DNA of 64,000 bases, from positions 862 through 64,861 of the forward strand of contig CAZQLN010000004.1 of assembly GCA_964594215.1 (NCBI GenBank). The letters are read 5' to 3'. Under the pieces are notes generated by a model. It did no database searches. It was given only the letters and a program-made list of their open reading frames with translations, and was not told the origin of the DNA. Positions 1 to 39,175 of this stretch are shown one piece after another (the stretch's first letter is position 1; every line of letters begins with the position of its first letter). A program made the translations under genes and the position numbers. Origin of the DNA: an uncultured Bdellovibrionales bacterium. GTDB lineage: Bacteria; Patescibacteriota; Minisyncoccia; Moranbacterales; UBA1568.

Positions 1-3000
1 CAGCTCCATCAGCTGAATCAAGAAGATCAACGGCAATAGTTGGAGTGCCACCCTCACTTGATGATGAACCAGAGATACCGTTACCAGCCGTGATGGTAGC
101 GACATAGTTTCCAGTCGTGTCAGTCGTAAGAGCAACAGCGTTTGATGAAATGGTGACTACACCAGCATTGGTGATAGCAGCATCACCACTCATGGTAGCG
201 AAGGCTGGAGCAGTACCAGTGTTACCAAGAAAAAGCTGACCATTAGTACCCGCTGAGGTGACCTGAATAGCACCAGCACTATTACCATAGAGGACTCCAT
301 TAGAAGTGAGGGTGGTAGCTCCGGTACCACCGCTGCTGACCGGAAGAGTGCCTGTAACTTCGGTAGCCAGATTAATATCAGTGCCGAGGGTTGCCGATAC
401 ACTAATAGTACCGCTACCGTTAGTAATAGTGATGCCACTCCCTTGAGTAAGCGTTGCGAGAGAGAAACCGGCTCCATTACCAATCAATAATTCTCCATTG
501 TTTGTAAGAGAAGCGTCTACGCCTGTACCACCGTACTGAGGCGTAATAACTGTACCGTTCCACACAGCGCTTGTGAATGTCTGACCACCATTTATAGTAG
601 CTATAACTCCGGATACGTTTGGTAAAGTCAATGTTCTATTAGATGACAGATCACCAGCATCAAGTGTGGCATAAAAAGTATCTCCGGCTGATTCCAATAA
701 CAATAGTTCACTAGCCGCATTATTCAAAATAATGTCGAAAGCACCTGTCTGAGTCCAATCACTCGTTAGATCTCCTAGAGCTAATGTCGGAGTAGCTCCT
801 TCTGAAGCAGCAGAACCACTCAAACCATTACCAGCGGTGATGGTAGCGACATAGTTTCCAGTAGTATCTGTAGAGAGAGCTACTGCATCAGCTGAAATAG
901 TCACCACTCCCGCATTAGTGATAGCAGCATCACCACTCATAGTGGCAAAAGCTGGAGCACCAGCGGTAACTCCTAAGAGGAGTTGGCCGTTAGTACCAGC
1001 ATTCGTAACTTGAACAGCGCCAGTACCATTACCAAGGAGTATTCTATTAGCAGTAAGCGTGGTGGTGCCAGTGCCTCCACTCGTCACTGGTAAAGTACCT
1101 GTTACTTCTGAGGCAAGATCAATATCGGTGCCAAGCGTTGCTGTGATTGTAAGCGTACCAGCTCCTTCAGTAACGGTAATACCTGCACCATCAGTGATCG
1201 TAGCTAATGAATAACCGGTTCCATTACCAATGAGTAATGTTCCGTTAGGTGCAGAGCCACCATTGACCCCCGTACCACCACGAGATGGATTGAGTTGGTT
1301 TTCACCTTGTAGTGATGAGGTTCCTGTAAAGTAGGCGACCTGACCAGCAGATCCAGAAGCGGTCGCACCACCTACACCGGATACTGAAGCACATGACCAC
1401 TCATTGGTAGTATTGTTCCATGACAACACATCATCTTGAACACAACCCTGAAGCAACGTCAGTTCGTTTGAACCACCTCCTTGGAACTCTAATCCTGAGT
1501 TTGATGAAGTAATACCAGTGCCATCTTGAGTATCTAATAAATCAATAGCCAGAGTCGGAGTAGCTCCTTCACTTGAGGCCGTTCCCGAGATACCACTTCC
1601 AGCAGTAATAGTAGCTACATAGTTCCCAACAGTATCAGTAGTAAGATCTACAGAATCACCACTGATAGTTAAGACTCCTGTATTGGATACCACCGCATCT
1701 CCAGAAAGAGTAGTGAAAATTGGTGCACCTCCAGTATTACCTAACAGGAGTTGTCCGTTTGTACCCGCTGCAGTTACCTGTATAGCTGAGGTGCCGTTAC
1801 CGTAGAGAATTCCATTCGTAGTAAGGCTCGCTGCGCCTGTACCTCCATTGGTGACCGGGAGGGTGCCGGTAACTTCAGTGGTGAGATCAACACTAGCACC
1901 AAGGGAAGCAGCTACCGTGATAGTGCCGGCGCCATTAGTAATGCTGATACCCCCACCTTGAGTCAAGGTAGCGAGAGTGTAACCACTTCCATTACCGATA
2001 AGAAGAGTTCCATTGGCAGCAGAGCTTCCGTCTACACCAGTACCTCCGTACTGTGCTCCAACAGCAGTACCATTCCAGACAGCACTTGTAAAAGTTTGCC
2101 CTCCATCAAGAGTAGCGAGAGTCCCCGTAGCATTTGGTAACGTAAGTGTACGATTACCAGAAAGATCAGCAGCATCTAAGGTAGCGTAGAAAGTGGCCCC
2201 AGCAGATTCAAGAAGTGAAAGTTCTGAAGAAGCATTGTTTAAGACAATGTCGAAAGCACCATTCTGATTCCAATTAGCAGTAAGGTCTCCTAAGGCCAAT
2301 GTCGGTGTACCACCTTCAGTAGCTACTCCTCCAGAAATACCGTTACCATTGGTAATGCTAGCAATGTAATTACCCGTAGTGTTGGTACCAAGAGCAATGA
2401 GGTCATTGAGAGAGCTTGCTCCCGTACCACCATTTGCTACTGGGAGAACACCGGTCACTTCCGTGGTGAGGTCTACAGTAGTACCAAGAGTACTGGCTAC
2501 GGTAATACTTCCTGATCCATTAGTAATCGTAATGCCAGAACCTTGAGTAAGAGTGGTGAGCGAATAGCCAGAGCCATTACCGATGAGTAGTGTTCCGTTA
2601 GCGGCGGCTGATCCATTTACACCCGTTCCGCCACGCAAAGGTGCTAACTGAGCTTCTGAGGCTACGACACTGCTACTTGTAAAATAAGCCACCTGATTAG
2701 CGCTCCCTGTTCCCGTGATACCTCCAGCACCTGACACCGACGAACAAGACCAAACATCAGTCGTATCATTCCATGATAAAACATCATTGTTAGTACAACC
2801 TTGAAGCAAAGTGAGTTGGTTGTTGCTGGCACCTTGAAACTCTAATCCAGAGTTTGAATTAGTAGCTCCACTACCATCGGCAGAGTTCAGAATATTAACA
2901 GCCAATGTCGGTGCACCACCTTCAGTAGCTACTCCTCCAGAAATACCGTTACCATTGGTAATGCTAGCAATGTAATTACCCGTAGTGTTGGTACCAAGAG

Positions 3001-5200
3001 CAATGAGGTCATTGAGAGAGCTTGCTCCCGTACCACCATTTGCTACTGGGAGAACACCAGTGACTTCACTAGAAAGATCTACCTGAGTTCCGAGGGTTGA
3101 CGCAATAGTGATACTGCCGCCGCCATTGGTCACCGTGATACCACTACCCTGAGTCAGAGTAGCCAGTGAGTAACCGCTCCCGTTACCGATCAAAAGTGAT
3201 CCATTAGCAGCAGAGCTACCATCTACACCAGTACCTCCACGAGATGGATTGAGCTGTGCTTCTCCTTGTAACGAAGAAGCTCCTGTAAAATACGCTACTT
3301 GGCCAGCAGATCCAGAAGCGGTCGCGCCACCCACACCAGATACAGAAGCACAACCCCATTCATTGGTGGTATTGTTCCAAGAAAGTACATCATCCTGGGC
3401 ACAGCCCTGAAGCAGAGTCAATTCGTTAGTACCACTTCCCTGAAACTCTAAACCGGAGAATGATGCAACTGCGCCGGCTCCATCAGCAGAATCAAGAAGG
3501 TCGATAGCGATAGTAGCTGCCCCTCCTTCACTCGCTGAAGATCCGCTAATACCATTACCACTGTTAATAGTTGCTACATAGTTACCAGTCGTATCAGTAC
3601 TCAATGCAACTGAATCTGAAGAAATAGTAATTACTCCGCTACTTGTAATTGTCGCGTCACCCGAGAGAGTGGCAAACGTCGGTGCACCAGCAGTAACTCC
3701 TAAGAGGAGTTGACCATTGGTACCGGCTGAGGTGACTTGAACGGCACCAGTACCATTACCATAGAGGACTCCATTAGAAGTGAGGGTGGTAGCTCCGGTG
3801 CCTCCGTTAGCGACTGGAAGAGTGCCTGTTACTTCGGTGGTGAGGTCAACCGTAGTACCAAGAGTGCTCGCTACGGTGATACTGCCTGATCCATTGGTGA
3901 TAGTGATACCTGAGCCTTGAGTAAGAGTGGCTAGTGAGTAACCACTACCGTTACCAATCAAGAGAGAACCATTAGCGGCTGAACTACCGTCTACACCAGT
4001 ACCTCCACGAGATGGATTGAGCTGATTCTCGCCAGCTAGTGAGGAGATTCCATTCCAGTAAGCGACCTGACCACTCGTACCTGTACCTGTGAGCCCTGCT
4101 GAAAAAGAAGTACACTCCCAAACATTTGTCGCATCATTCCAACTCACTCCCTGCCCATTAGAACAACCCTGAAGCAAAGTCAATTCATTATTGCCAGCTC
4201 CACCAAACTCAAGACCCGAATTTGATGAGGTTGCCCCTGCTCCATCGGCTGAGTCTAGAAGATCAATAGCAATTGTCGGAATACTTCCTTCGCCAGTCAA
4301 TCCCCCACTAATACCATTACCATTGGTAATACTCGCTACATAATCACCGGTAGTATCAGTGCCAAGATCGATACTACCAGAAGCTCCAACACTGATGTCA
4401 GAAAAAGTTGATCCATCGTTAGAGAGTTCCCATGCTTGAGTCGTACCGTTGTAGCGAAGAGCTGGCGCATTTGTAGCGCTTGATACTGTGAGATCGAAAT
4501 TATTACCACTCAGTGCCGTACCAGATCCAATATTGAAAATCTGCTCAGTCGTTCCAGTGTCTGTGTTTTGCGCATGAATATCATCAAGAATTTTATCATT
4601 ATCCTTGAGATAACCTTTGATGGCACTTGCTGGTAATGCTGGAATAAAACTAGCGTCCAGTTTTCCACCCTTATCAAGAACCGGAATGTCACCTTCATTG
4701 GTTCCAACGGTTCTTCCTTGGAGGAACTGCGTATTGAGAGCACGAGGTACAGAACCCAACTTCTTACGCGGTGTCATTTCGGAGTCACCTGCAACACGAA
4801 TACCGATATAGTAATCTCCCGAATCAAAGTTAATGGCATTAGAAAATGCATTGATACCTCCAAGAGAAGCTCGGAAAATACCGTTTTTGACTTCTACAGT
4901 TTGAGTTTCTTCCCAAAGTTTAGGATCAGAATTTGATGGATAGGCATCGGCGGTAGTACGATTTGCTGCATACAAAGCGAAGCGAACCTCATAAGTTCCA
5001 TTGGTAACAATCTGGTTATCTGAGTTAAAAAGCGATGCCGAGATAGAAATGAGGCGAATTGAGTTCGAATTTGATTGGTTTGACTGCGCAAAAACAGACT
5101 TTTGGTTAAAGCCCCACCCGATTATCACCACCAAGCTTAAAGCTATGAAGAGTGATGTGTATGCTGTTTTTCGGTTTTTATTTTTTACATAAAATAGCAT
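1..5200 (-). CDS. Giant secreted/cell-surface repeat protein, N-terminal 1,733 codons. The 3' end lies beyond position 1. Start ATG at 5200-5198 with a signal peptide (MLFYVKNKNRKTAYTSLFIALSLVVIIGWGFNQKSVFAQS). The body is 200-250 aa repeats with recurring motifs TEVTG(T/V)LPV(A/T/S)NGGTGA(T/S)(T/S)L, LLIGNGSGYSLATLTQGSGITITNG and TTGNYVA(T/S)ITxGNGISG.
   Basis: I translated the minus strand by hand in the frame whose codon first bases are congruent to 1 mod 3. The frame agrees at both ends (5200 and 58) and I met no stops in the stretches checked. The ORF track omits it because no stop falls inside the window. Nucleotide repeats of variable period (about 600-765 nt) are plainly visible. Confidence 0.6.
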   Translation of the reverse strand, partial: MLFYVKNKNRKTAYTSLFIALSLVVIIGWGFNQKSVFAQSNQSNSNSIRLISISASLFNSDNQIVTNGTYEVRFALYAANRTTADAYPSNSDPKLWEETQTVEVKNGIFRASLGGINAFSNAINFDSGDYYIGIRVAGDSEMTPRKKLGSVPRALNTQFLQGRTVGTNEGDIPVLDKGGKLDASFIPALPASAIKGYLKDNDKILDDIHAQNTDTGTTEQIFNIGSGTALSGNNFDLTVSSATNAPALRYNGTTQAWELSNDGSTFSDISVGASGSIDLGTDTTGDYVASITNGNGISGGLTGEGSIPTIAIDLLDSADGAGATSSNSGLEFGGAGNNELTLLQGCSNGQGVSWNDATNVWECTSFSAGLTGTGTSGQVAYWNGISSLAGENQLNPSRGGTGVDGSSAANGSLLIGNGSGYSLATLTQGSGITITNGSGSITVASTLGTTVDLTTEVTGTLPVANGGTGATTLTSNGVLYGNGTGAVQVTSAGTNGQLLLGVTAGAPTFATLSGDATITSSGVITISSDSVALSTDTTGNYVATINSGNGISGSSASEGGAATIAIDLLDSADGAGAVASFSGLEFQGSGTNELTLLQGCAQDDVLSWNNTTNEWGCASVSGVGGATASGSAGQVAYFTGASSLQGEAQLNPSRGGTGVDGSSAANGSLLIGNGSGYSLATLTQGSGITVTNGGGSITIASTLGTQVDLSSEVTGVLPVANGGTGASSLNDLIALGTNTTGNYIASITNGNGISGGVATEGGAPTLAVNILNSADGSGATNSNSGLEFQGASNNQLTLLQGCTNNDVLSWNDTTDVWSCSSVSGAGGITGTGSANQVAYFTSSSVVASEAQLAPLRGGTGVNGSAAANGTLLIGNGSGYSLTTLTQGSGITITNGSGSITVASTLGTTVDLTTEVTGVLPVANGGTGASSLNDLIALGTNTTGNYIASITNGNGISGGVATEGGTPTLALGDLTANWNQNGAFDIVLNNASSELSLLESAGATFYATLDAADLSGNRTLTLPNATGTLATLDGGQTFTSAVWNGTAVGAQYGGTGVDGSSAANGTLLIGNGSGYTLATLTQGGGISITNGAGTITVAASLGASVDLTTEVTGTLPVTNGGTGAASLTTNGILYGNGTSAIQVTAAGTNGQLLLGNTGGAPIFTTLSGDAVVSNTGVLTISGDSVDLTTDTVGNYVATITAGSGISGTASSEGATPTLAIDLLDTQDGTGITSSNSGLEFQGGGSNELTLLQGCVQDDVLSWNNTTNEWSCASVSGVGGATASGSAGQVAYFTGTSSLQGENQLNPSRGGTGVNGGSAPNGTLLIGNGTGYSLATITDGAGITVTEGAGTLTITATLGTDIDLASEVTGTLPVTSGGTGTTTLTANRILLGNGTGAVQVTNAGTNGQLLLGVTAGAPAFATMSGDAAITNAGVVTISADAVALSTDTTGNYVATITAGNGLSGSAASEGATPTLALGDLTSDWTQTGAFDIILNNAASELLLLESAGDTFYATLDAGDLSSNRTLTLPNVSGVIATINGGQTFTSAVWNGTVITPQYGGTGVDASLTNNGELLIGNGAGFSLATLTQGSGITITNGSGTISVSATLGTDINLATEVTGTLPVSSGGTGATTLTSNGVLYGNSAGAIQVTSAGTNGQLFLGNTGTAPAFATMSGDAAITNAGVVTISSNAVALTTDTTGNYVATITAGNGISGSSSSEGGTPTIAVDLLDSADGA

Positions 5201-5329
5201 GGAAATGGAATCATTATTCCTCTACAAGTATACCACGATTTTTGCTTTGCCAATAGTCTTTTTGTGTATAACTTGCAAAGAAAATCCCGCCTATTTTTGG
5301 GTCGAGATTTTCGTCAAATTTTCACCAAA

Positions 5330-6082
5330 TTATTTATCAACTGCCCATCCAAATGTATCCCCCACAGCCCCCGCAATGAGGTCAAAAAGAGATACCGTTT
5401 TGGAGCCAGTAGATACAGCGTAGGAATCACTCGAAAACTTGTTACCAAATCGATCTTCAGCATTAATCACATAGATATAGGTCGATGCCTGTTCAAGAGC
5501 AGGAATGATAATACTATGACTAAAGCTATAGTCACTTTCCGTAATATCTTGCTTCTCTTGGCCAACCTTGGAATATTGGATAGTTGATTTAGCCAACTTA
5601 TTGGTACTCCAAGTCAATACAAGTTTTACGCCCTGATTATTTTTTTCGGTAAATGACTCCCCACGAACGCCTGATATCTCGAGTGGCTCAGGAGAATCTT
5701 CCAACAAAATCAATTCAGCTTCACCTCCAATAGCTATATCACCAACTTTATAACTTTCGCTTTCATACTGAGCGGTACCAAAAAGAGCATCAGTACTCAA
5801 GGTATCAAGTGAAGGTGGAGCCGCTTGTAAATTCTGTGACTTAGGTTGTTCTGTTGGTACCGGAATTGCCTCCTCGGTCACATCGGGTTTAGCTGAGAAG
5901 CGCGTATACGCAAACCACCCTATTCCACCCAACAAAAAAAGAAGGAGTAGTATGATTATCCACTTCTTTTTTGACTTCTTTTTTTCCTCACCCGCACCAC
6001 CCGCTTGAACATCGGGAGTGGCTATTGGCTCAGCCATAGATACGTTCACGTACACGCTTTTTAGATACAAATAGTATACCAC
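5330..6082 (-). CDS. Hypothetical single-pass membrane protein with a K-rich cytoplasmic N-terminus, one TM helix (WIIILLLLFLLGGIGWFAY) and an extracytoplasmic beta-rich domain. The true start may be the internal Met (MAEPIATP).
   Basis: 250-aa ORF directly upstream of, and co-directional with, the giant repeat gene. No recognisable family. Confidence 0.4.
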   Translation of the reverse strand: MVYYLYLKSVYVNVSMAEPIATPDVQAGGAGEEKKKSKKKWIIILLLLFLLGGIGWFAYTRFSAKPDVTEEAIPVPTEQPKSQNLQAAPPSLDTLSTDALFGTAQYESESYKVGDIAIGGEAELILLEDSPEPLEISGVRGESFTEKNNQGVKLVLTWSTNKLAKSTIQYSKVGQEKQDITESDYSFSHSIIIPALEQASTYIYVINAEDRFGNKFSSDSYAVSTGSKTVSLFDLIAGAVGDTFGWAVDK

Positions 6083-6179
6083 GAAAAACTGCCAATGCTA
6101 AGCAAAAAAACAGCCTTTTCTTGATTGTATTCTACAAAGACATCTATACTACCCTTACGCTTATTTTTTAGGATATTTT

Positions 6180-7278: not shown

Positions 7279-8400
7279 TTATCCCAGATGATCTTTTTTA
7301 TAGGCATCCTCGATCTTTCTCATGATTTCTTGCTCCATTACATGATGAGCCTCGTTTTCTAATGTTCCAGGCGTATCATATTCATACTTATCGTAAGCTT
7401 GACGATAGGTCTTTCCCTCACTGATCGATCTGTATTCAGATCGTATCATTGAAGCATAGTGTAAAGCATAGGCTCTTAATGGATTGTCATTATATTGCTT
7501 AGCATGAGCCATCTCAGCAAGCCAATCCCTTCCTTTATCCAAAGGATTTATATACAGCGTATTAGATGAAGCCATATAATACGCTCTGCCTGTCTGTCTT
7601 TGAGTTTTCAGATCTTCACGTTTTTGTCCTGGTTTATCAAAAATAAAACGAATCTTTGGATTACCTAATTCTTTTTGCATCTCCCAAATAACTCGGTAAG
7701 CCCTTGGATCAAACTGCATGAATTGACCTACTCCATCAAACTCTTCATCTGCCCTCTTTTTTTGTTCCGATCCACCCCCAAAAATCCCCTCATGTAAATC
7801 AGCGTGTTTTTTTCTAAGCTCTACTGCACTCATATGAGAGAGCTCCTCTGGCACATCCAAAGCTAAAGTAAGATACTCTTCTGCTAGGCTACTCCTATAC
7901 ATTTCGAGTTTCAGATCTTCTGGTAATGGATCTTTACCTAGAAGATAGTTGAGATTTTTCGTTGTTTCAGGATCTTCATGTTCATACCTAATACCATCTG
8001 TTGTTTTTGTTTCTGCTACCGTGTAGCGAGTGGCGTAATAGCTAGCAGTTGAACCAGCCGCTGAAAAAAGGGCTGCGGCCCCCGCTATCTTTCCGATATT
8101 TTTTTTAATCAGATGGAAAACTCTCACAACAGCTCTCTTTTTCAACTTACCATCCTTAATATTCTCGATTTTTTCAGGTAAAGTTTCGATCTGCTGAGCT
8201 ATCTCATAAACTTCTTCTTCAGTGCCAATTCCAATCAACTCAGAAAAATGTTCCCTCAGATCACTCGTACTTTCAATATTTTGAGCTTTTTCAAATTCAT
8301 CCGGTTTTCCAAGTTCCTGGTGCAAGTCACTCTCCAACTTCGAATGTTCCTTAAACACGGCTTTGTTGTTAATGTGAAACAATTTTTCCCAATAATGCAT
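7279..8400 (-). CDS. Hypothetical protein with one predicted TM segment. It lies downstream of parB and overlaps it by 32 nt.
   Basis: 373-aa ORF. No family recognised. Confidence 0.4.
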   Translation of the reverse strand: MHYWEKLFHINNKAVFKEHSKLESDLHQELGKPDEFEKAQNIESTSDLREHFSELIGIGTEEEVYEIAQQIETLPEKIENIKDGKLKKRAVVRVFHLIKKNIGKIAGAAALFSAAGSTASYYATRYTVAETKTTDGIRYEHEDPETTKNLNYLLGKDPLPEDLKLEMYRSSLAEEYLTLALDVPEELSHMSAVELRKKHADLHEGIFGGGSEQKKRADEEFDGVGQFMQFDPRAYRVIWEMQKELGNPKIRFIFDKPGQKREDLKTQRQTGRAYYMASSNTLYINPLDKGRDWLAEMAHAKQYNDNPLRAYALHYASMIRSEYRSISEGKTYRQAYDKYEYDTPGTLENEAHHVMEQEIMRKIEDAYKKDHLG

Positions 8401-14304: not shown

Positions 14305-16134
14305 TTATTCAACAGTTACTGACTTCGCCAAATTACGTGGTTTATCGACATCATAGCCTAGCTCTACACTCATGTAGTAAGCAAAGAGCTGGAGTGGGAT
14401 GATAGAGAGGAGTGGCGTCAGCATCTCGATGGTTTTTGGTATGTAAATCACAGCATCAGCCTTCTTAGCTACGCCTGTATTCCCCTTGGTCGTAATAGCT
14501 AGCACCGCTCCACCACGAGCCTTGATTTCTTCAAGTCCCGAAAGGTTTTTCTCATACACGCTATCCTCAGGCACCACTACCACCGAAAGAGAACCTTTGT
14601 CTACTAGAGCTATGGGGCCATGCTTCATCTCACCAGTGGCGTAGCCCTCGGCAGAGACATAGGCAATTTCTTTGATCTTGAGCGCTCCCTCGAAAGCAAT
14701 GGGGAAGTTGTACTTACGTCCCAGAAAAAGATAGTTCTTACGGCCTTTGAATTTCTTGGCTAATTTCTTCATTTCCTTACTCGTCTCAAGTACCTGCTCC
14801 ATCAGTTTCGGCAGCTGCTCAAGAGCGCGTGCAATCTTCTTGCCATCGGTGAACGAGAGACCCCTTCTCCGTCCCAAAAACAGGGTCAGGAGAGCAAGAA
14901 CCCCTAGTTGTGAGGTGAATGCCTTAGTCGAGGCTACACTGACCTCACGGCCCGCATGATTGTATATGCCCGCGTGGGTTTCTCGAGCGATAGTAGAACC
15001 CACTGTATTCACGATTCCAAGAACTAACGCCCCTTGACGTTTGGCTTCTCGCAACGCCGCGAGAGTATCAGCTGTCTCGCCCGATTGGGAAATGGCTATC
15101 ACAGCTGTATATTTATCAATCAATAGTTTACGATAACGAAATTCCGAGGCAAATTCTACTTCTGCGGGGATCAAGGCAAATTCTTCCAACATATACTCAC
15201 CCACCAAACTCGCATGGTACGATGTGCCGCAAGATACCAGAATAATTTTCTTAATACTCTGTAGACGCTTCTCCACTTCACGCAACCCCCCTAGTCTTGC
15301 CGTACCTTCAGTGGTTATAAGTCTCCCTCGCATAGCATCTTCGAGTGCTCGCGGTTGTTCATGAATCTCCTTGAGCATGAAGTGTGGGTAGCCATCACGT
15401 TTCGCCTCAGTCTCTGACCATTCTACATCTATCACTTCTTTTTGATTGATTTTACCTCCCCTATGAACGGTATAACCATTTAGAGTCAATACAGCGTATT
15501 CACCATCATCGAGATAGACTACTTTTCTCGTATGTGGAAGAAGTGGAGAAACATCAGAGGCCACAAACCACTCATCTTTACCGACACCAATCACTAATGG
15601 ACTCCCCATGCGTGCAATCAGAATCTTATCTGGCTCTGACTGTCTCAACACAGCAATCCCGTAAGTACCTTTCAGTTTTTTGAGAACATTCCGAAAAGCT
15701 TCCTCAAAAGTTTTTCCTTCATCAAGGGCTGCTCGAAGTAGATGCACAATGACCTCACTATCTGTCTCAGAACGAAAAATGACTTTTTTTCTCTTGAGCT
15801 CATTACGAAGTTCTCCGTAATTTTCAATAATCCCATTGTGGACCAGGGCAATTTCCTTCGTGCTATCAGTATGGGGGTGAGCGTTTTTCTCGCTCGGCTT
15901 TCCATGAGTGGCCCAACGAGTATGGGCGATACCGACATTGCCGACTACACTTACTTTCTCCAGCTTTTCTTCCAGATTGGCTACTTTACCCACGGCTTTG
16001 ACTACACGGACCTTACCCGCTCCCAACACAGCCATACCAGCACTATCATAGCCACGATACTCGAGCCGTTTCAATCCTTCTAATAGTAAATCTTTGGCTT
16101 CCCGCTTCCCTATATAGCCGATGATACCGCACAT
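14305..16134 (-). CDS. glmS: Glutamine--fructose-6-phosphate aminotransferase
   Basis: N-terminal MCGIIGY (Ntn Cys) and two SIS domains. 609 aa. Confidence 0.9.
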   Translation of the reverse strand: MCGIIGYIGKREAKDLLLEGLKRLEYRGYDSAGMAVLGAGKVRVVKAVGKVANLEEKLEKVSVVGNVGIAHTRWATHGKPSEKNAHPHTDSTKEIALVHNGIIENYGELRNELKRKKVIFRSETDSEVIVHLLRAALDEGKTFEEAFRNVLKKLKGTYGIAVLRQSEPDKILIARMGSPLVIGVGKDEWFVASDVSPLLPHTRKVVYLDDGEYAVLTLNGYTVHRGGKINQKEVIDVEWSETEAKRDGYPHFMLKEIHEQPRALEDAMRGRLITTEGTARLGGLREVEKRLQSIKKIILVSCGTSYHASLVGEYMLEEFALIPAEVEFASEFRYRKLLIDKYTAVIAISQSGETADTLAALREAKRQGALVLGIVNTVGSTIARETHAGIYNHAGREVSVASTKAFTSQLGVLALLTLFLGRRRGLSFTDGKKIARALEQLPKLMEQVLETSKEMKKLAKKFKGRKNYLFLGRKYNFPIAFEGALKIKEIAYVSAEGYATGEMKHGPIALVDKGSLSVVVVPEDSVYEKNLSGLEEIKARGGAVLAITTKGNTGVAKKADAVIYIPKTIEMLTPLLSIIPLQLFAYYMSVELGYDVDKPRNLAKSVTVE

Positions 16135-16144
16135 AGAAATTATT

Positions 16145-16774
16145 TTAGTGACTAAAGGTAAGCAGCTCGTTTAAGCTCTGGATCTCGTGGCGAGCCCCAC
16201 AGTTTCGAGAACACTGACGACCAAGCTCTGGTCGATTCATATGAAATGTTAGCACACTGCCATTATCCTGGAGAGTTCTCATGTACTCAGAACGATCATC
16301 AATAAACCAGACTGTTTCTCCGAGTTTTTTGGCCTCTTCTTGTAGAAGTCTAGCTTTATCGCTAGCGATAATAATTACTTCATCGAACAAATGACTGATC
16401 CCACTCGCGATAATTTTTTGTTTTTGAAATTGCTGATGACCGAAAGTAAGGAGAATGAAATAGGCGCCACGCTGCTTAAGCTCGATCAAAAATTTCCTAA
16501 CATCAGCAAAAATGAAACTCCTCTTTTCTCTCAGGATATTCTCTATTGTTATGAGAGCTTCTTCTATATCAGTTTCTCGCCAACCAAGAATCTCCATTTG
16601 CCGTCTAGGTGTAAACAACTCTCCTTCAAGTAGGGTACCGTTGGTAAAAAATGTATAGCTTTTTTCAATTTCTCTTTCCGTGCTGCCATAAGCAAGCAAT
16701 AGTGGTTTGTAGTACTCCTGGTAAAAAGTCTGTGTCGCTAATAATGTATTATCAAGATCCAAATAGACGTGCAT
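16145..16774 (-). CDS. HAD-superfamily hydrolase. The start is taken at MHVYLDLDNTLL. The ORF-track extension to 16849 overlaps the upstream gene.
   Basis: DxDxT motif DLDNT at the N-terminus. Confidence 0.55.
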   Translation of the reverse strand: MHVYLDLDNTLLATQTFYQEYYKPLLLAYGSTEREIEKSYTFFTNGTLLEGELFTPRRQMEILGWRETDIEEALITIENILREKRSFIFADVRKFLIELKQRGAYFILLTFGHQQFQKQKIIASGISHLFDEVIIIASDKARLLQEEAKKLGETVWFIDDRSEYMRTLQDNGSVLTFHMNRPELGRQCSRNCGARHEIQSLNELLTFSH

Positions 16775-16779
16775 ATATT

Positions 16780-17472
16780 CTAGAGAAAATACTGCTGAAT
16801 AAAAGCTTCTGCTTTGGGAATATCCTCTGGACAACCCACCGATTGCCATGCCCGAACCTTTTTGACAGCCACTGGTATATCTTTGGCCATGACTACTACG
16901 GTTTGTGGTAACCCGAATTCTTTCTCAGTGATTTGTACGAGCGGGTACGAGAAAAATGATTGTGGCAAAACATAGGCTCCTACACAGACATCTCCTGTCT
17001 GTCTTTCGTGTGGACGCTCTATAACTGACATTAATTTCCCACTTCTATCAATTCCCAAAAGACCAAATGGTTGAGCATTCTCTACATACAAGCCTCCGAT
17101 AGCCCCTTCACCGCTAGGTGTTGCTAAAAACTCTCTAAGATCTAGCGGATGATACAGATCATCTCCCATTGTAACCAACACCGACCCCTGCACATAGGGA
17201 GCCACTAATTGCATTGCTCCACCAGAACCATTCAACACCTCTTGAGTTATATACGTAATTTTTCTTCCTTGCCATTCAGTGCCGAAATACTCTCTAATCT
17301 GTTCTTGAAGATAGCCTACTACCAAAATCACCTCATCTACCTCATCTGGCAGCGTCTCCAAACGCCACTCAAGAAGTGGCTTATTAAGAAGTCTTACCAT
17401 GGGCTTCGGGCAATCATGACAAAGCTCACGCATCCGTGTTCCTAGTCCAGCCGCGAGTATTACTGCTTGCAT
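16780..17472 (-). CDS. Sugar-phosphate nucleotidyltransferase
   Basis: MQAVILAAGLGTRM signature. Confidence 0.6.
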   Translation of the reverse strand: MQAVILAAGLGTRMRELCHDCPKPMVRLLNKPLLEWRLETLPDEVDEVILVVGYLQEQIREYFGTEWQGRKITYITQEVLNGSGGAMQLVAPYVQGSVLVTMGDDLYHPLDLREFLATPSGEGAIGGLYVENAQPFGLLGIDRSGKLMSVIERPHERQTGDVCVGAYVLPQSFFSYPLVQITEKEFGLPQTVVVMAKDIPVAVKKVRAWQSVGCPEDIPKAEAFIQQYFL

Positions 17473-17475
17473 AAG

Positions 17476-20424
17476 CTACGAGACAACAATACTAATCAGT
17501 TTATTGGGTACCACAATAACTTTCCTGACTGTTTGGCTACCAATAGTTTCTTGCACTTTTTCTCTTGCAAGAGCAAGTTTTTCCACTTCTTCATTTGAAA
17601 GATCAAGTGCACCCTGGAATTGATCACGAATTTTACCATTAATCTGTACCATCAGTGTCACCTCTGCTACCACTACCTTGCTCGGATCAAAAACAGGCCA
17701 AGTCATCTCAAAAAGAGTTCCTTCTCCATCATTTTTTTGCCAAAGCTCTTCAGTAATATGCGGAGCATAGGGAGCTAAGATTCGTAGAAAAAGTTTCAGC
17801 TGTTCCCGAGTTAAGCCATTTTTTTCGATTATATTCACTGCTCCCATAAGCGCCGCTACTCCAGTATTCATCTTAAGAAGACTAATACTTTCCTCTACCT
17901 TGGCTATGGTTTGATGTAGGATTCTTTCTGTCTCATTTTTTTTATCATCAGAAAGTCCCTCATCTACCTTAAAGTGAAGTTTCCATACTCGATCAAGAAA
18001 ACGTCTCACTCCCACAATACTCTCTGGATTCCATGGGTAAGCCCCCACTTCATTATACGGACCAATGAAAGCCAGGTAGACACGAATGGTGTCCGCACCT
18101 AATTCCGCAACCAGTTCATCTGGATCAATCACATTTCCTTTAGATTTGCTCATCTTATTGCCGTCTGGCCCAAGAATAAGACTGCGGTTCATACGCCTGG
18201 TATAGGGCTCCACCTCATTAACGAGCCCTAAATCATAAAGTGCCTTATGAAAAAAACGTGAGTACAGTAAGTGCATAGTGGTATGTTCTGCTCCACCACT
18301 ATACAAATCTACCGGCATCCAGGCAGCTAGTTTGTTTTTATCAGCAAATACTTCTCTATTTGATGGATCACAATAACGCAAGAAATACCAACTACTATCC
18401 ACAAAAGTATCTAGGGTGTCTGTCTCACGACGAGCCGATTTACCACATTTTGGACATACTGTGTTTACAAAATCCTTGTTCTTAGAAAGCGGGCTCTCGC
18501 CGTTGTCATTAGGAAGATAGTCCCTTACGGCCGGTAGTTCTATCGGTAAGTCTTCGTCTGCTACCGGTTGCCAACCACACTTTTCACAGTGAATAAGCGG
18601 GATCGGACAGCCCCAATAACGCTGACGACTCACACCCCAGTCACGAAGACGGTAAGTCTTTGTCATCCTACCATGTACTTTTTCGATAATCTTTCCTTTG
18701 GCGTCATTGCCTGACAGTCCATCAAATTCACCAGACTGTACCAAAATACCGTCTGCACTTACAAGAGCACTCTCCTCTTGTCGCTCAAATAATTCTATGG
18801 CCCATTTAGCCTCTGCTACAGTAAAATAATTCTTGACCGCACTCTTCTCAACCCATACTAGTTCATGTTGAGCACTATCCTCTTCACTGATAGCTATCTG
18901 TTCATCATCAATAAGTTCAAAAAAGGCAAAGCTCCACAAAGCATGGCGGTTAATTTTCTTACCCCGATGATAGAATTTGGTATGTTTCTGGATATTGGGT
19001 GTACCAATAAATTTCACGTTCTTATAGCCCGTTTCTTCGAGGAGCTCCCTCCGCGCTGATTGCTCGATACTCTCACCTTCATCTATACCTCCAGTCACTA
19101 CCCCACGCATATCAAAATTTTTCCAAGATATTGCTAAGTAAGAATCCCGCTTTGGATCATAGAGTGCGATAGCTACATTATTTCTAGCCTCTGTCTTTTC
19201 TTCGGGTCGATAAGCATCATCACGGTTACCTTCCGTCACCACACACTCTTCAATCACCTTCTTAATCGGCAGACTAAACTTCTTAGCAAAAGCGAAGTCG
19301 CGCTCATCATGACCCGGTACCGCCATGATAGCTCCAGTACCATAGCCAGCTAATACATAATCAGCCACGTATAGAGGGATTTCTTCTCCCGTTGCCGGGT
19401 TAATAGCTACTACTCCGCCAAGCAGTACTCCCGTCTTTTCTTTAGCGGTATTAGTACGCTCTATCTCAGTTTTCTTCTTAGCGGCCTCTACGTAAGCTCT
19501 CACTTCCTCTTTATTAGAAAGAACATCATGATCATCCTGCAAAGCCAGAGTTACCCAAAGATGTTCAGGCGCCAAAACCATATAGGTTACCCCATAGAGA
19601 GTGTCTGGTCGCGTAGTAAAAACCGTTAACTGTGCTCGTTCACCATCTGGTCCACGGTTATCATTAGCCTCTACATTATGGGTAAAGCGAAGAAGGAAAT
19701 CTATCTCCGCCCCATCACTTCGGCCTATCCAATTTTTCTGAGCAGTCTTGATTTCTTCAGGCCAATCAAGCCCCTTCAGATCATCTATTAACCTATCAGC
19801 ATAGGCCGTAATTCGTAGTTGCCATTGCTTCATAGTTTTCTTCTCGATCTGAGCCCCACAACGCTCACAAGTGCCATTGATAACCTGTTCATTAGCCAAA
19901 ACTGTTTTGTCAGTCGGACACCAATTGGCAAGGGTTTCTCGCTCCTCGACTAATCCTGCTCTAAAAAGCTGAATAAACAACCACTGAGTCCATCGGTAGT
20001 ATTGGGGATCACAGGTTGCTATGGCACGAGACCAATCAAATATAGCTCCCATAGACTGAAGCTGGGTTTTCATATAGTCCATGTTTTGGTAGGTCCACAC
20101 TCGTGGATCTAAACCTCGCTTGATAGCGGCATTTTCAGCAGGAAGACCAAAGGCATCGAAACCAATGGGATAGAGGACATTCTTACCACGCATTCGCTCA
20201 AAGCGAGCTCGTATGTCGGGCACTGCAAAAGCGTACCAGTGACCAACGTGTAAGTTGCCTGATGGATAGGCAAATTCTACCAACTGATAGAAATTCTCTT
20301 TTCCTTCTACAGTATCTAAAACGACATGCAGGTTGCGCTCAGCCCACAAAGCCTGCCATTTTGGTTCAATAATTTCTGGTTGGTAGAGGTTTTCCATAAA
20401 CAGAGTACCTCTACTATATGCCAA
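17476..20424 (-). CDS. leuS: Leucyl-tRNA synthetase with an inserted NUDIX-like domain. The probable start is MENLYQ, nine codons in.
   Basis: HVGH, editing-domain motifs, YRLRDWGVSRQRYWG, KMSKS. NUDIX box GGIDEGESIEQSARRELLEETGY at about aa 444-466. Confidence 0.9.
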   Translation of the reverse strand: MAYSRGTLFMENLYQPEIIEPKWQALWAERNLHVVLDTVEGKENFYQLVEFAYPSGNLHVGHWYAFAVPDIRARFERMRGKNVLYPIGFDAFGLPAENAAIKRGLDPRVWTYQNMDYMKTQLQSMGAIFDWSRAIATCDPQYYRWTQWLFIQLFRAGLVEERETLANWCPTDKTVLANEQVINGTCERCGAQIEKKTMKQWQLRITAYADRLIDDLKGLDWPEEIKTAQKNWIGRSDGAEIDFLLRFTHNVEANDNRGPDGERAQLTVFTTRPDTLYGVTYMVLAPEHLWVTLALQDDHDVLSNKEEVRAYVEAAKKKTEIERTNTAKEKTGVLLGGVVAINPATGEEIPLYVADYVLAGYGTGAIMAVPGHDERDFAFAKKFSLPIKKVIEECVVTEGNRDDAYRPEEKTEARNNVAIALYDPKRDSYLAISWKNFDMRGVVTGGIDEGESIEQSARRELLEETGYKNVKFIGTPNIQKHTKFYHRGKKINRHALWSFAFFELIDDEQIAISEEDSAQHELVWVEKSAVKNYFTVAEAKWAIELFERQEESALVSADGILVQSGEFDGLSGNDAKGKIIEKVHGRMTKTYRLRDWGVSRQRYWGCPIPLIHCEKCGWQPVADEDLPIELPAVRDYLPNDNGESPLSKNKDFVNTVCPKCGKSARRETDTLDTFVDSSWYFLRYCDPSNREVFADKNKLAAWMPVDLYSGGAEHTTMHLLYSRFFHKALYDLGLVNEVEPYTRRMNRSLILGPDGNKMSKSKGNVIDPDELVAELGADTIRVYLAFIGPYNEVGAYPWNPESIVGVRRFLDRVWKLHFKVDEGLSDDKKNETERILHQTIAKVEESISLLKMNTGVAALMGAVNIIEKNGLTREQLKLFLRILAPYAPHITEELWQKNDGEGTLFEMTWPVFDPSKVVVAEVTLMVQINGKIRDQFQGALDLSNEEVEKLALAREKVQETIGSQTVRKVIVVPNKLISIVVS

Positions 20425-37192: not shown

Positions 37193-39175
37193 TTAGGGTG
37201 TTGCTTTTACGAAACCACTCTGCTCAGTTACACTCTTATCTTGCTCTAGATAGTTTGTAACCTTTGCGCGCTCCGTAATGACTTCTTTTTTAGTGAAACT
37301 TTCCTTAGCTTCGAATGTAGCTGTTTTGACTAACTCCACATCTTTACCTACCTGACTCTGATTAGGCGTAATAGCTACCTGAAATTGAAACTCCTTCTCT
37401 TTGCCTGAGGATAAAATACCTACCTCCCAAACAAGTTCATTGGTGCGCGCCTTCCATTCTACGGTTTCTCCATTAGGGTAGGACTTTTCTTTATACACGA
37501 CTCCGCTCGGAAGGACAAATGTTATGCGGGCTTGAGAAAGGTCGTTTGAAGAACTTGCTACCTTGGTACGAATAGTATAGGTAGTCTCACTCCCTACTAC
37601 TGGCGGTAATGGTCCGGTATTAGCTATATGGTCACCGCTGAAAAACGGCGACACCTGAAGCGCCACCAGGGCACCTACTTTGACCTGAAGGAGGTTGCTT
37701 GCAATAGTTTTATTACCAGTCAAGGTACTCTTGACATCAGGGCTATCGATAGTAGCTACTGACTTAATAGCAATGTTTTTAGGATTAGCATTAGCCGGAA
37801 ATTCTTTCACCACTGGTACGGTAAATGAAATCTTTCCTGACTGTCCAGGTTCGAGACGGGCCAAAGCTGGAATATCCGCAGCTTTCCAAGTAATTTTTTT
37901 CGTGTTTTGGTCATAAAAACCCTGACTCAGCTGAAGATTGGCAATATCTAGATAGGCCGTATCAAGCGCGAGAGTCACTATTACATCGCGCATACCGAGT
38001 GCTGATTCGTTCTTATACTCAATCTCATAATTCAACATGTCGCCTGGATTAGCAACGAGCTCATTATTGCCGTTTACCAACTGAGAGATGGTAAGTGGTG
38101 TGGCAATCATTTGCGTTCGCTTCTCTACCATGTTGTAGGTAAAGAGTGAGTTGTCACCCTGAAGAATACCAATAGTAGCCGAAAATGTTTTGGCCGTATC
38201 GCGAGCGCCTCCAAGACTACCATGAATCACTATCTTGCCATTCTGATTCGGTTTCAACTCAGGGAGGAGCCATGTATTATTACTCTCACTTGGCACTATA
38301 TCAGATGACAAGTACTGAAAACCTTCTGGATATTTGGCAACCACACGAAGGTTACGAAAGGTTTCTGGACTCCTATTCTCATACGTCACAACATAGTCGA
38401 GCTCTTGACCAGGAGCCACCTCACCAGGGGCGCTGACTTCAAAGAGGAGGGGTGAAGTGGCCAGAACCACCTGAAAGTTCGCTTTGGTATCAAACTGACT
38501 GCTCGTGCTTTTTGGTGTATAGCGAAGTGTGGCTTCGAAGTTTGCCTTCTCACCCTTGCCTCCATAAAACTTACCACTAATAGTAAATTTCTTGTTTGCA
38601 CCTCTCGCCAATCCGCCCACTGGTATTTCTACTCGCTTACCAGCCATTTTCATTTCTGGAGTCATTTCAATCTGGAAGGTATCGGGCAGAGCTATAGTCA
38701 GCGTAGTTTTCTCTATCTCATTCCAACTATTATTGGCATATGTCAGGTCAAAAGAGACTCGCTCAGCACTCGCTACACTCGCTGGTCCACTGATAAAAAT
38801 ACTAACGGCACTCTGACGCTTGAGATACGTGTATCCCGCAAAACTCGCTCCCCCCAAAACAAGTAAGGCAACTAGAGAACCTATAACAATATAGAGCTTT
38901 TTCAGCCTGGCTTTCTTAACATCAGGGCTGACTAGATAGATTTCTTGTTTAGGAGCTATCTGCCACTCTTCTTTTTTTTGAAAGGCTTGCTTTTCTTGGT
39001 CAATTTCTTCTTGAGTATGCTCTTCGTGCACAGCTAAACGTGCCTTATCTAGGTGAGTATCACGACTATGGAGTTGTTCATTTAAATCTTCGAGACTCAT
39101 ATGAGGTATATTTGTTTTGACTACCTCTATACTAGCAAAATTGAGAGATGAAAGAAACGCTAGTGAGCTATCCAA
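37193..39175 (-). CDS. Membrane-anchored surface protein with DUF11/CARDB-like conserved repeat domains
   Basis: One TM (LYIVIGSLVALLVLGG) followed by repeated beta-sandwich-like segments (PGQELDYVVTYENRS..., PGDMLNYEIEYKNES...). Confidence 0.4.
   Translation of the reverse strand: MDSSLAFLSSLNFASIEVVKTNIPHMSLEDLNEQLHSRDTHLDKARLAVHEEHTQEEIDQEKQAFQKKEEWQIAPKQEIYLVSPDVKKARLKKLYIVIGSLVALLVLGGASFAGYTYLKRQSAVSIFISGPASVASAERVSFDLTYANNSWNEIEKTTLTIALPDTFQIEMTPEMKMAGKRVEIPVGGLARGANKKFTISGKFYGGKGEKANFEATLRYTPKSTSSQFDTKANFQVVLATSPLLFEVSAPGEVAPGQELDYVVTYENRSPETFRNLRVVAKYPEGFQYLSSDIVPSESNNTWLLPELKPNQNGKIVIHGSLGGARDTAKTFSATIGILQGDNSLFTYNMVEKRTQMIATPLTISQLVNGNNELVANPGDMLNYEIEYKNESALGMRDVIVTLALDTAYLDIANLQLSQGFYDQNTKKITWKAADIPALARLEPGQSGKISFTVPVVKEFPANANPKNIAIKSVATIDSPDVKSTLTGNKTIASNLLQVKVGALVALQVSPFFSGDHIANTGPLPPVVGSETTYTIRTKVASSSNDLSQARITFVLPSGVVYKEKSYPNGETVEWKARTNELVWEVGILSSGKEKEFQFQVAITPNQSQVGKDVELVKTATFEAKESFTKKEVITERAKVTNYLEQDKSVTEQSGFVKATP

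Follow-up and report, generated by a model that had tools for sequence, protein, structure and literature searches.

A giant gene for a tail-fibre-like, probably exported and surface-exposed protein on a Candidatus Moranbacteria contig

The 64,000-nt stretch of contig CAZQLN010000004.1 analysed here (the window), deposited as DNA of an uncultured Bdellovibrionales bacterium, carries at its left end the 5' part of a giant protein-coding gene (1..5200, minus strand), which is the subject of this study. Translated from position 5200 down to position 1, the minus strand stays open for 1,733 codons, beginning at an ATG (5198-5200) with the N-terminal sequence MLFYVKNKNRKTAYTSLFIALSLVVIIGWGFNQKSVFAQS and running off the window at position 1. 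The original prediction, which was made from the sequence alone, had proposed a continuous minus-strand frame of at least 1,733 codons from this ATG that is invisible to the open reading frame (ORF) track. Both statements hold: no in-frame stop is present, and the frame is missing from the mechanically produced ORF list because it runs off the end of the source sequence. Each of the remaining five frames of positions 1-5200 contains 58-187 stops, and the probability of meeting no stop over 1,733 codons, as calculated from base composition, is about 1e-40.

The frame is colinear with the related loci L001 and L004. The window protein is 81.5% identical to that of L004, with a ratio of nonsynonymous to synonymous substitution rates (dN/dS) of 0.088 overall and 0.06-0.09 per module, and L004 remains in frame over 2,083 aa. 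Four independent assemblies from related species (L001-L004), whose proteins are 73-95% identical to that of the window, have the same order of sequence blocks (described below) as far as each extends. Block-order conservation and dN/dS together indicate that the modular body of the protein is conserved, rather than being a fast-evolving or collapsed repeat, and the window frame is a real gene under strong purifying selection. The recombinational size variation that had been expected of the internal repeats is not seen, as these four orthologs keep the exact block order. No further copies of the giant protein were found within the window beyond position 5200.

The protein begins with a predicted Sec-type signal peptide (aa 1-38; 5087..5200, minus strand). 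The n-region contains four K/R residues and is followed by the sole hydrophobic stretch of the visible protein (aa 12-31); V-F-A and Q-S occupy positions -3 to +2 around the putative cleavage site, with small residues at -3 and -1, and cleavage would occur between VFA and QS. The pattern YVKNKNRK...(V/S)FAQS is kept in most of the 17 orthologous loci found in species-representative genomes. The signal peptide that had been read from the sequence is therefore upheld by these features and by their conservation. It is followed by a conserved N-terminal domain of approximately 240 aa (N-domain, aa 39-280; 4361..5086, minus strand), defined by profile search and by an alignment of 16 sequences with 20 invariant columns. 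In the AlphaFold2 (AF2) model of the N-domain, the predicted local distance difference test score (pLDDT) is about 80 at aa 48-147 (4760-5059, minus strand) and low elsewhere, so that only a generic beta-sandwich is modelled with confidence. Compared with the PDB, the N-domain gave no Foldseek fold match at E<0.001, and its profile found nothing significant among PDB sequences.

The remainder of the visible protein consists of 6.2 modules, each built from mini-domains of four types (A, A', B and C) in the order ABC-AB-AB-A'BC-ABC-A'BC-A. Module boundaries were taken from a module alignment and from hidden Markov models (HMMs) of the blocks. In gene order on the minus strand, the modules are M1 (A-B-C, aa 281-534, 3599..4360), M2 and M3 (both A-B without C; aa 535-736, 2993..3598, and aa 737-938, 2387..2992), M4 (A'-B-C, aa 939-1187, 1640..2386), M5 (A-B-C, aa 1188-1443, 872..1639), M6 (A'-B-C, aa 1444-1692, 125..871) and the start of block A of M7 (aa 1693-1733, 2..124), which is cut by the window edge. 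The lengths of M1 to M6 are 254, 202, 202, 249, 256 and 249 aa, that is 202-256 aa where modules of 200-250 aa had been claimed, and module copies are 50-85% identical to one another at the protein level. All four recurring motif blocks of the original prediction are present, with TTGNYVA occurring seven times in the visible protein and RGGTGV, LLIGNG and NGGTGA six times each. Together with the open frame and the signal peptide features, these counts and modules support the description of the product as a giant, repeat-rich, secreted protein cut by the window edge.

Block A is approximately 92 aa long and terminates in LLQGC-x16-C. Block A' (~94 aa, LGDLT..NWNQ.GAFDI..LLES) is a Cys-less alternative to A. 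Block B (~103 aa) has the form RGGTGV...LLIGNG...EVTGTLPVANGGTGA, and block C (~61 aa) is optional. The claim of recurring LTLLQGC...W.C blocks stands in part, the Cys pair being found in four of the six copies, and the other two being the Cys-less variant A'. All eight Cys residues of the visible protein belong to four C-x16-C pairs, and among 73 homologous A blocks all but one have exactly two Cys residues, 14-17 residues apart, a pattern that would fit extracytoplasmic disulfides. The visible protein is acidic and charge-poor (G+T+S+A+N make up 60% of residues and K+R 1.8%; isoelectric point 4.05), and contains 35 N-x-S/T sequons.

Two tracts of 167 nt within the gene are almost identical in DNA sequence (164/167). 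In gene order, the first (2901..3067, minus strand; aa 712-767) reaches from the end of B in M2 to the start of A in M3, and the second (2295..2461, minus strand; aa 914-969) spans the M3/M4 junction. The near-identical copies that had been noted are thus confirmed with their three mismatches (at 2308, 2453 and 2456, two of them synonymous) and a length close to the 165 nt given; the offset is corrected from 600 to 606 nt, and the coordinates to those above. The best 150-nt stretch of the pair scores 149/150 in the window, 139/150 in L001 and 105-117/150 in L002-L004, and the tract is therefore specific to the lineage of the window. One recent intragenic gene conversion would be the simplest reading, and the near-identity may alternatively be a polishing artefact. 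An origin by a diversity-generating retroelement was rejected, as adenine bias is absent from the three mismatches, two of which leave the protein unchanged.

Upstream of the giant gene is a gene for a protein of 235 aa (5330..6037, minus strand), with an N-terminal transmembrane (TM) anchor (KKKSKKKWIIILLLLFLLGGIGWFAY) in its translation and a weak Fn3-like/Pur_ac_phosph_N match (Pfam E=0.002) that falls short of the curated cut-off. In 18 of 21 related loci, some of them without the parAB context, the giant gene is directly preceded by a homolog of this partner gene, encoding a membrane protein of about 250 aa. That the pair is conserved suggests that the two genes are functionally linked, for instance through anchoring, export or assembly. 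Homology of the 235-aa protein to the N-domain was rejected (hhalign probability 0.5%). There is no terminator-like site between the two genes. A consensus scan, which found five promoter-like sites where 2.7 were expected, called one upstream of the partner gene (TTAGCA-17-TATACT with TG; 6073..6101, minus strand); it might, weakly, mark the start of a two-gene transcript. Another site was seen by eye approximately 25 nt upstream of the giant-gene ATG (5227-5253, minus strand; TTGGCA, 15 nt, TGgTATACT). It was not called by the scan because of its 15-nt spacer, and may serve the giant gene itself as an extended -10 promoter.

The window also encodes ParA/ParB, FolD, UppP, an RNase T-like exonuclease, GlmS, tRNA-Leu, tmRNA, the alpha and beta subunits of ATP synthase and four class I aminoacyl-tRNA synthetases, and no phage structural genes adjoin the giant gene in the window. 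The giant gene lies next to parAB, and this synteny is kept across species and in two closed genomes. Judging by gene content and homologs, the stretch is chromosomal DNA of Candidatus Moranbacteria (Patescibacteria, or candidate phyla radiation, CPR), not of a phage. Named homologs almost all belong to Candidatus Moranbacteria/Moraniibacteriota or to the “Patescibacteria group”, the 17 orthologous loci mostly likewise or to the Parcubacteria group, and the window ParA is 88% identical to ParA of a named Moranbacteria metagenome-assembled genome (MAG). Nine of the loci (L003, L004, L006, L011, L012 and L015-L018) come from third party annotation (TPA) MAGs that are labelled “uncultured Bdellovibrionales bacterium”. 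These Bdellovibrionales-labelled loci have gene order and high ParA/ParB identity in common with named Moranbacteria MAGs. Given the shared synteny and the ParA identity, we treat the label as a mislabel; it is probably wrong. The lineage is Patescibacteria, Parcubacteria group, Moraniibacteriota.

Three further genes in the window, all on the minus strand, can be mentioned here. A 982-aa leucyl-tRNA synthetase (17476-20424) carries a NUDIX hydrolase domain (PF00293, E=6.8e-13, aa 414-530), inserted behind the editing domain, which is an unusual fusion. Between parB and the nucleotidyltransferase gene is a 373-aa ORF (7279-8400) without a family match, for which tblastn found no homolog in the 21 related loci that are otherwise syntenic; it may represent an insertion confined to this lineage. 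A second putative surface protein, of 660 aa (37193-39175), carries DUF11 (E=1.4e-20) and DUF7927/DUF7619 repeats.

The contig ends inside the giant ORF, between 140 and 2,083 aa past its start, in every one of the 17 orthologous loci (L003-L019) of species-representative genomes. Searched against 1.84 billion representative sequences, the N-domain profile matched 150 clusters when E<=1e-30 was required and 4,782 with the looser limit of E<=1e-10, and the family is therefore abundant in databases. Family members are named “hypothetical protein”, “tail fiber domain-containing protein” or “autotransporter adhesin”, the last of which is wrong. Mini-domains were counted in the window protein and 120 homologs among the matches listed, which gave 105 copies of A (in 46 proteins), 154 of A' (in 58), 404 of B (in 103) and 379 of C (in 96); judging from these profile matches, the four mini-domains are shuffled across a large protein family. 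In the library searched, we found no literature joining Patescibacteria, CPR or Moranbacteria with endosialidase, S74, tail fibre or adhesin giant proteins. The papers listed there as mentioning Peptidase_S74 (15 of 30) concern phages, other viruses or extracellular contractile injection systems (eCIS), with the one exception of a Liberibacter genomics study. The window gene thus joins a family that is abundant in databases, yet for which no description was found in the literature searched.

Complete and near-complete relatives have a common architecture of signal peptide, N-domain, variable fibrous body, sometimes a Peptidase_S74 domain (as in P0022 and P0034), coiled coil and terminal domain. 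The terminal domain is a conserved beta-domain ending in ..DWW(I/L)V.., kept in most full-length members and seen in P0005, P0010, P0015, P0016, P0022, P0190, P0197 and others, and complete relatives have no toxin or enzyme Pfam domain at the C-terminus. Two closed Moranbacteria genomes reach beyond the point where the window breaks off. In CP064974 (L104), exactly as in the window, ParB is followed by an oppositely oriented NTP_transferase gene, the gene for a TM protein (here of 253 aa) and then the giant gene. Its giant gene consists of 2,147 aa plus 3,334 aa in an overlapping frame, approximately 5,500 aa in total, with a Peptidase_S74 match (E=4e-12) about 265 aa from the end; in CP064975 (L105) the giant-gene fragments total approximately 5,400 aa. 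Frameshifts split the gene into two pieces in L104 (CP064974.1, 16239-16441 and 17148-22028) and four in L105 (CP064975.1, 338-16558), and may be long-read errors or real. In L001, which is the closest relative with sequence, 10.9 kb or more of the gene can be followed and its end is still not reached, and a member of 5,603 aa is present in the representative library. From the closed genomes, L001 and this member, the window gene is therefore expected to continue for several thousand codons past position 1. Its full length is probably about 5,000-5,600 aa, the visible part being the N-terminal third, and by extrapolation the missing C-terminus would carry an S74-type chaperone, a coiled coil and the terminal beta-domain.

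Some further observations concern these loci. L104 has eight copies of block A at an even 660-nt spacing and with identical HMM scores. In CP064975 (L105, 20038-22579), the giant gene is followed by a TPR protein and five consecutive small T4SS_pilin/TrbC-like genes. Two loci with this N-terminus (L011 and L012) are found on different contigs of one MAG of the closest relative, CAZLQC01. The syntenic one is 95% identical to the window protein over aa 1-140, and the other matches the signal peptide exactly (41 aa) before it diverges (67% identity); the family therefore has within-genome paralogs. In the short-read contig L103 (ENA ERZ27275110 k141_60701), the first 170 giant-gene codons and upstream DNA are joined to the GlmS region, at 96.9% identity to window 4689-5833 and 87.6% to window 14396-17473, respectively. 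That the two identities differ suggests that the contig is chimeric, misassembled at the repeat gene.

The relation to tail fibres rests on profile comparisons. The whole visible protein matches PHROG 31660 (“tail fiber protein”, E=4.8e-17) in six stretches, all of them in block B, and M4 alone matches the same family (E=8.5e-9). An IMG/VR scan found 150 stretches that encode relatives of the B-C blocks. Of four viral-contig ORFs scanned, two match PHROG 31660, one matches tail-fibre PHROGs 8745/11518 and one matches nothing. The resemblance to phage tail-fibre motifs in the original prediction is thus borne out by PHROG 31660, by the IMG/VR relatives and by the S74 domain of the syntenic ortholog. 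At the level of single sequences, tblastn of one module against 50,697 deposited phage genomes gave no match, and the phage link is therefore one at the profile level. A Pfam search of the whole visible protein (E<=1) returned only compositional noise at or below cut-offs (DtxR SH3, SATB ULD, Kelch_2 and Desmo_N) and not one significant stretch; the PIR1-like_C, LSM14 and YscD matches in relatives were dismissed as noise of the same kind. NCBIfam gave nothing on the window protein, and no Peptidase_S74 is present in the visible 1,733 aa.

The closest known counterparts are phage tail fibres and tailspikes with Peptidase_S74 (PF13884), such as the K1F endosialidase and the L-shaped tail fibre pb1 of T5. 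Like these, the giant protein has a modular, Gly/Thr/Ser-rich shaft, its block B is profile-homologous to a tail-fibre PHROG, and syntenic and full-length relatives carry S74 followed by a coiled coil. However, the giant gene has a chromosomal, syntenic position beside parAB and no phage genes around it; its product carries a Sec signal peptide and, in place of a domain for attachment to a baseplate, a conserved N-domain of its own; it is three to five times longer (~5,500 aa, as taken from orthologs); and its relatives add a conserved beta-domain after the chaperone region. Any S74 of the window gene itself would lie outside the view. In the R-type pyocin/P2-like tail fibre (6CL5), the motif EVTGTLPVANGGTGATTLTSNGVLYG resembles the short motif ITSGILPLARGGLGANTAAGARNNIG of the giant protein. 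6CL5 is the top PDB match of the B-C profile, but at a non-significant E=0.18 and with one short motif of about 40 residues aligned, so that it is a lead and not evidence of membership. As a long, repetitive and probably trimeric surface fibre, the giant protein would resemble the trimeric autotransporter adhesins, after which some relatives are named (e.g. P0017 and P0105). These adhesins require an outer membrane. YadA anchor, Hep_Hag and HIM domains were found neither in the visible part, nor in the complete relatives checked, nor in the C-terminal part of the syntenic ortholog. The visible part also lacks the N-terminal TPS domain of two-partner-secretion filamentous haemagglutinins (TpsA), and the neighbours of the gene are a small TM protein and a nucleotidyltransferase, not a TpsB transporter.

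Two systems from the literature also bear comparison. The tail fibres of eCIS are phage-derived and used by cells to bind target cells, some of them carrying Peptidase_S74 (PMC12923769); unlike the giant gene, which has no such operon and a product predicted to use Sec export, they are encoded in eCIS operons and assembled on a cytoplasmic particle. Vampirococcus lugosii, a CPR predator with a small genome, encodes envelope proteins of 1,392-4,163 aa for which a fibrous surface and host attachment have been proposed (Moreira et al. 2021, PMC8080830). It is thus another CPR bacterium with giant surface proteins, but these carry WD40, PKD, DUF11, integrin and fibronectin domains (PMC8080830), all of which are absent from the window protein, which has tail-fibre-type blocks instead.

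The reading that we favour, and consider somewhat better than an even bet, is that the gene encodes a Sec-exported, tail-fibre-like, probably trimeric fibre of the Moranbacteria cell surface, of which the N-terminal third is visible here, and for which we infer a role in attachment. The chain would be exported by Sec. Starting at the S74-type chaperone near the C-terminus, three chains would then zip up into one long trimeric fibre of beta-structure, in the way known from endosialidases and the tail fibres of phages. This folding mechanism of S74 chaperones is established for endosialidase and T5 pb1-type fibres. The Cys pairs of the A blocks would form extracytoplasmic disulfides, and the N-domain or an uncleaved signal anchor, possibly together with the upstream TM protein, would tether the fibre to the envelope. 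The fibre would extend outward for hundreds of nm, and its distal end would touch surfaces or the cells of partners or hosts. Scaled by the long tail fibre of T4, at a rough 0.05 nm per residue, approximately 5,500 aa would come to about 300 nm, a length similar to a CPR cell diameter. Attachment to a host by such a fibre would fit both the episymbiotic lifestyle proposed for CPR bacteria and the giant envelope proteins of Vampirococcus.

Several points weigh against this reading. The C-terminus lies outside the window, so that the S74 domain, coiled coil and terminal domain are extrapolated from orthologs. Trimerisation is presumed, the model at hand being a low-confidence AF2 monomer of M5 (pLDDT 64.9, predicted TM-score 0.32, mostly extended or coil), for which Foldseek returned no meaningful fold match. 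PDB sequence searches with the protein, the N-domain profile and the B-C profile gave nothing significant, the phage-genome tblastn was blank as described above, and some of the metagenomic “viral” contigs with relatives may be misclassified CPR DNA. No anchoring motif (SLH, LPXTG or lipobox) was identified in the visible part, and the protein may be released rather than retained at the surface.

This last point bears most directly on the reading as a released protein, which might be an adhesin or agglutinin secreted by the cell, a vehicle for an effector at its C-terminus or a decoy that absorbs phages. The conserved cleavage-like site in the signal peptide and the lack of an anchoring motif would suit release, and S74 cleavage is established to free the extreme C-terminal piece of proteins with endosialidase-type chaperones. 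However, complete relatives end in a conserved, non-enzymatic beta-domain rather than in a toxin or enzyme Pfam domain, and the conserved N-domain and membrane-anchored partner gene suggest docking to the envelope. We consider release rather unlikely. An S-layer or general envelope coat, tiling the cell surface instead of forming discrete fibres, is a less credible reading still. CPR cells are reported to carry S-layers, and the protein is exported, acidic, charge-poor, rich in Thr, Ser and Gly and provided with 35 sequons; but no SLH or other S-layer domain was found in the visible part (Pfam at E<=1, NCBIfam), so that the S-layer-like alternative of the original prediction is left without support, and approximately 5,500 aa in orthologs, tail-fibre-type modules and S74 suit a fibre and not a lattice. 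The occurrence of more than one copy in some genomes (two loci in one MAG) also speaks against a coat.

It is very improbable that the long frame and its repeats are an assembly artefact, from collapsed or mis-joined repeats, or a decaying pseudogene. Contigs do end inside the gene in 17 of 17 species-representative loci, frameshifts split it in the closed genomes and the 167-nt tract is duplicated almost exactly. Nevertheless, the visible 5.2 kb is uninterrupted, the block order is the same in four independent assemblies with a dN/dS of 0.09, and the modules, at 50-85% identity, are divergent enough for unambiguous assembly except at the one short tract. A virion or tailocin fibre, from a prophage integrated here or from a phage-tail-like particle, could explain the tail-fibre PHROG matches, S74 in relatives and the relatives in viral contigs. 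We give it hardly any credence, since the giant gene is surrounded by parAB, folD, uppP, glmS and a sugar nucleotidyltransferase gene, without phage structural genes, and the synteny of the locus holds between species and also in two closed genomes. The Sec signal peptide also argues against it, as virion fibres are assembled in the cytoplasm and need none.

The giant gene is a systematic assembly breaker. Since contigs end inside it in all 17 representative loci and it is split in two closed genomes, its true length and C-terminal domains are systematically missing from MAG-based catalogues. To our knowledge, apart from type IV pili in Saccharibacteria, little is known of the means by which ultra-small CPR bacteria locate partner cells and keep hold of them. 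A tentative extension of the surface-fibre reading, which we regard as possible but doubtful, is that Moranbacteria and other Patescibacteria have domesticated tail-fibre blocks and S74 into a Sec-exported, chromosomally fixed fibre of about 5,500 aa (perhaps ~300 nm) with a dedicated membrane partner, which would be their primary device for recognising and holding hosts; block shuffling from lineage to lineage would then tune fibre length and host range, in the manner of phage tail-fibre mosaicism. Being conserved, syntenic, under purifying selection, predicted to be exported and built on the principles of phage receptor-binding fibres, the family is a concrete candidate for partner or host recognition in CPR bacteria.

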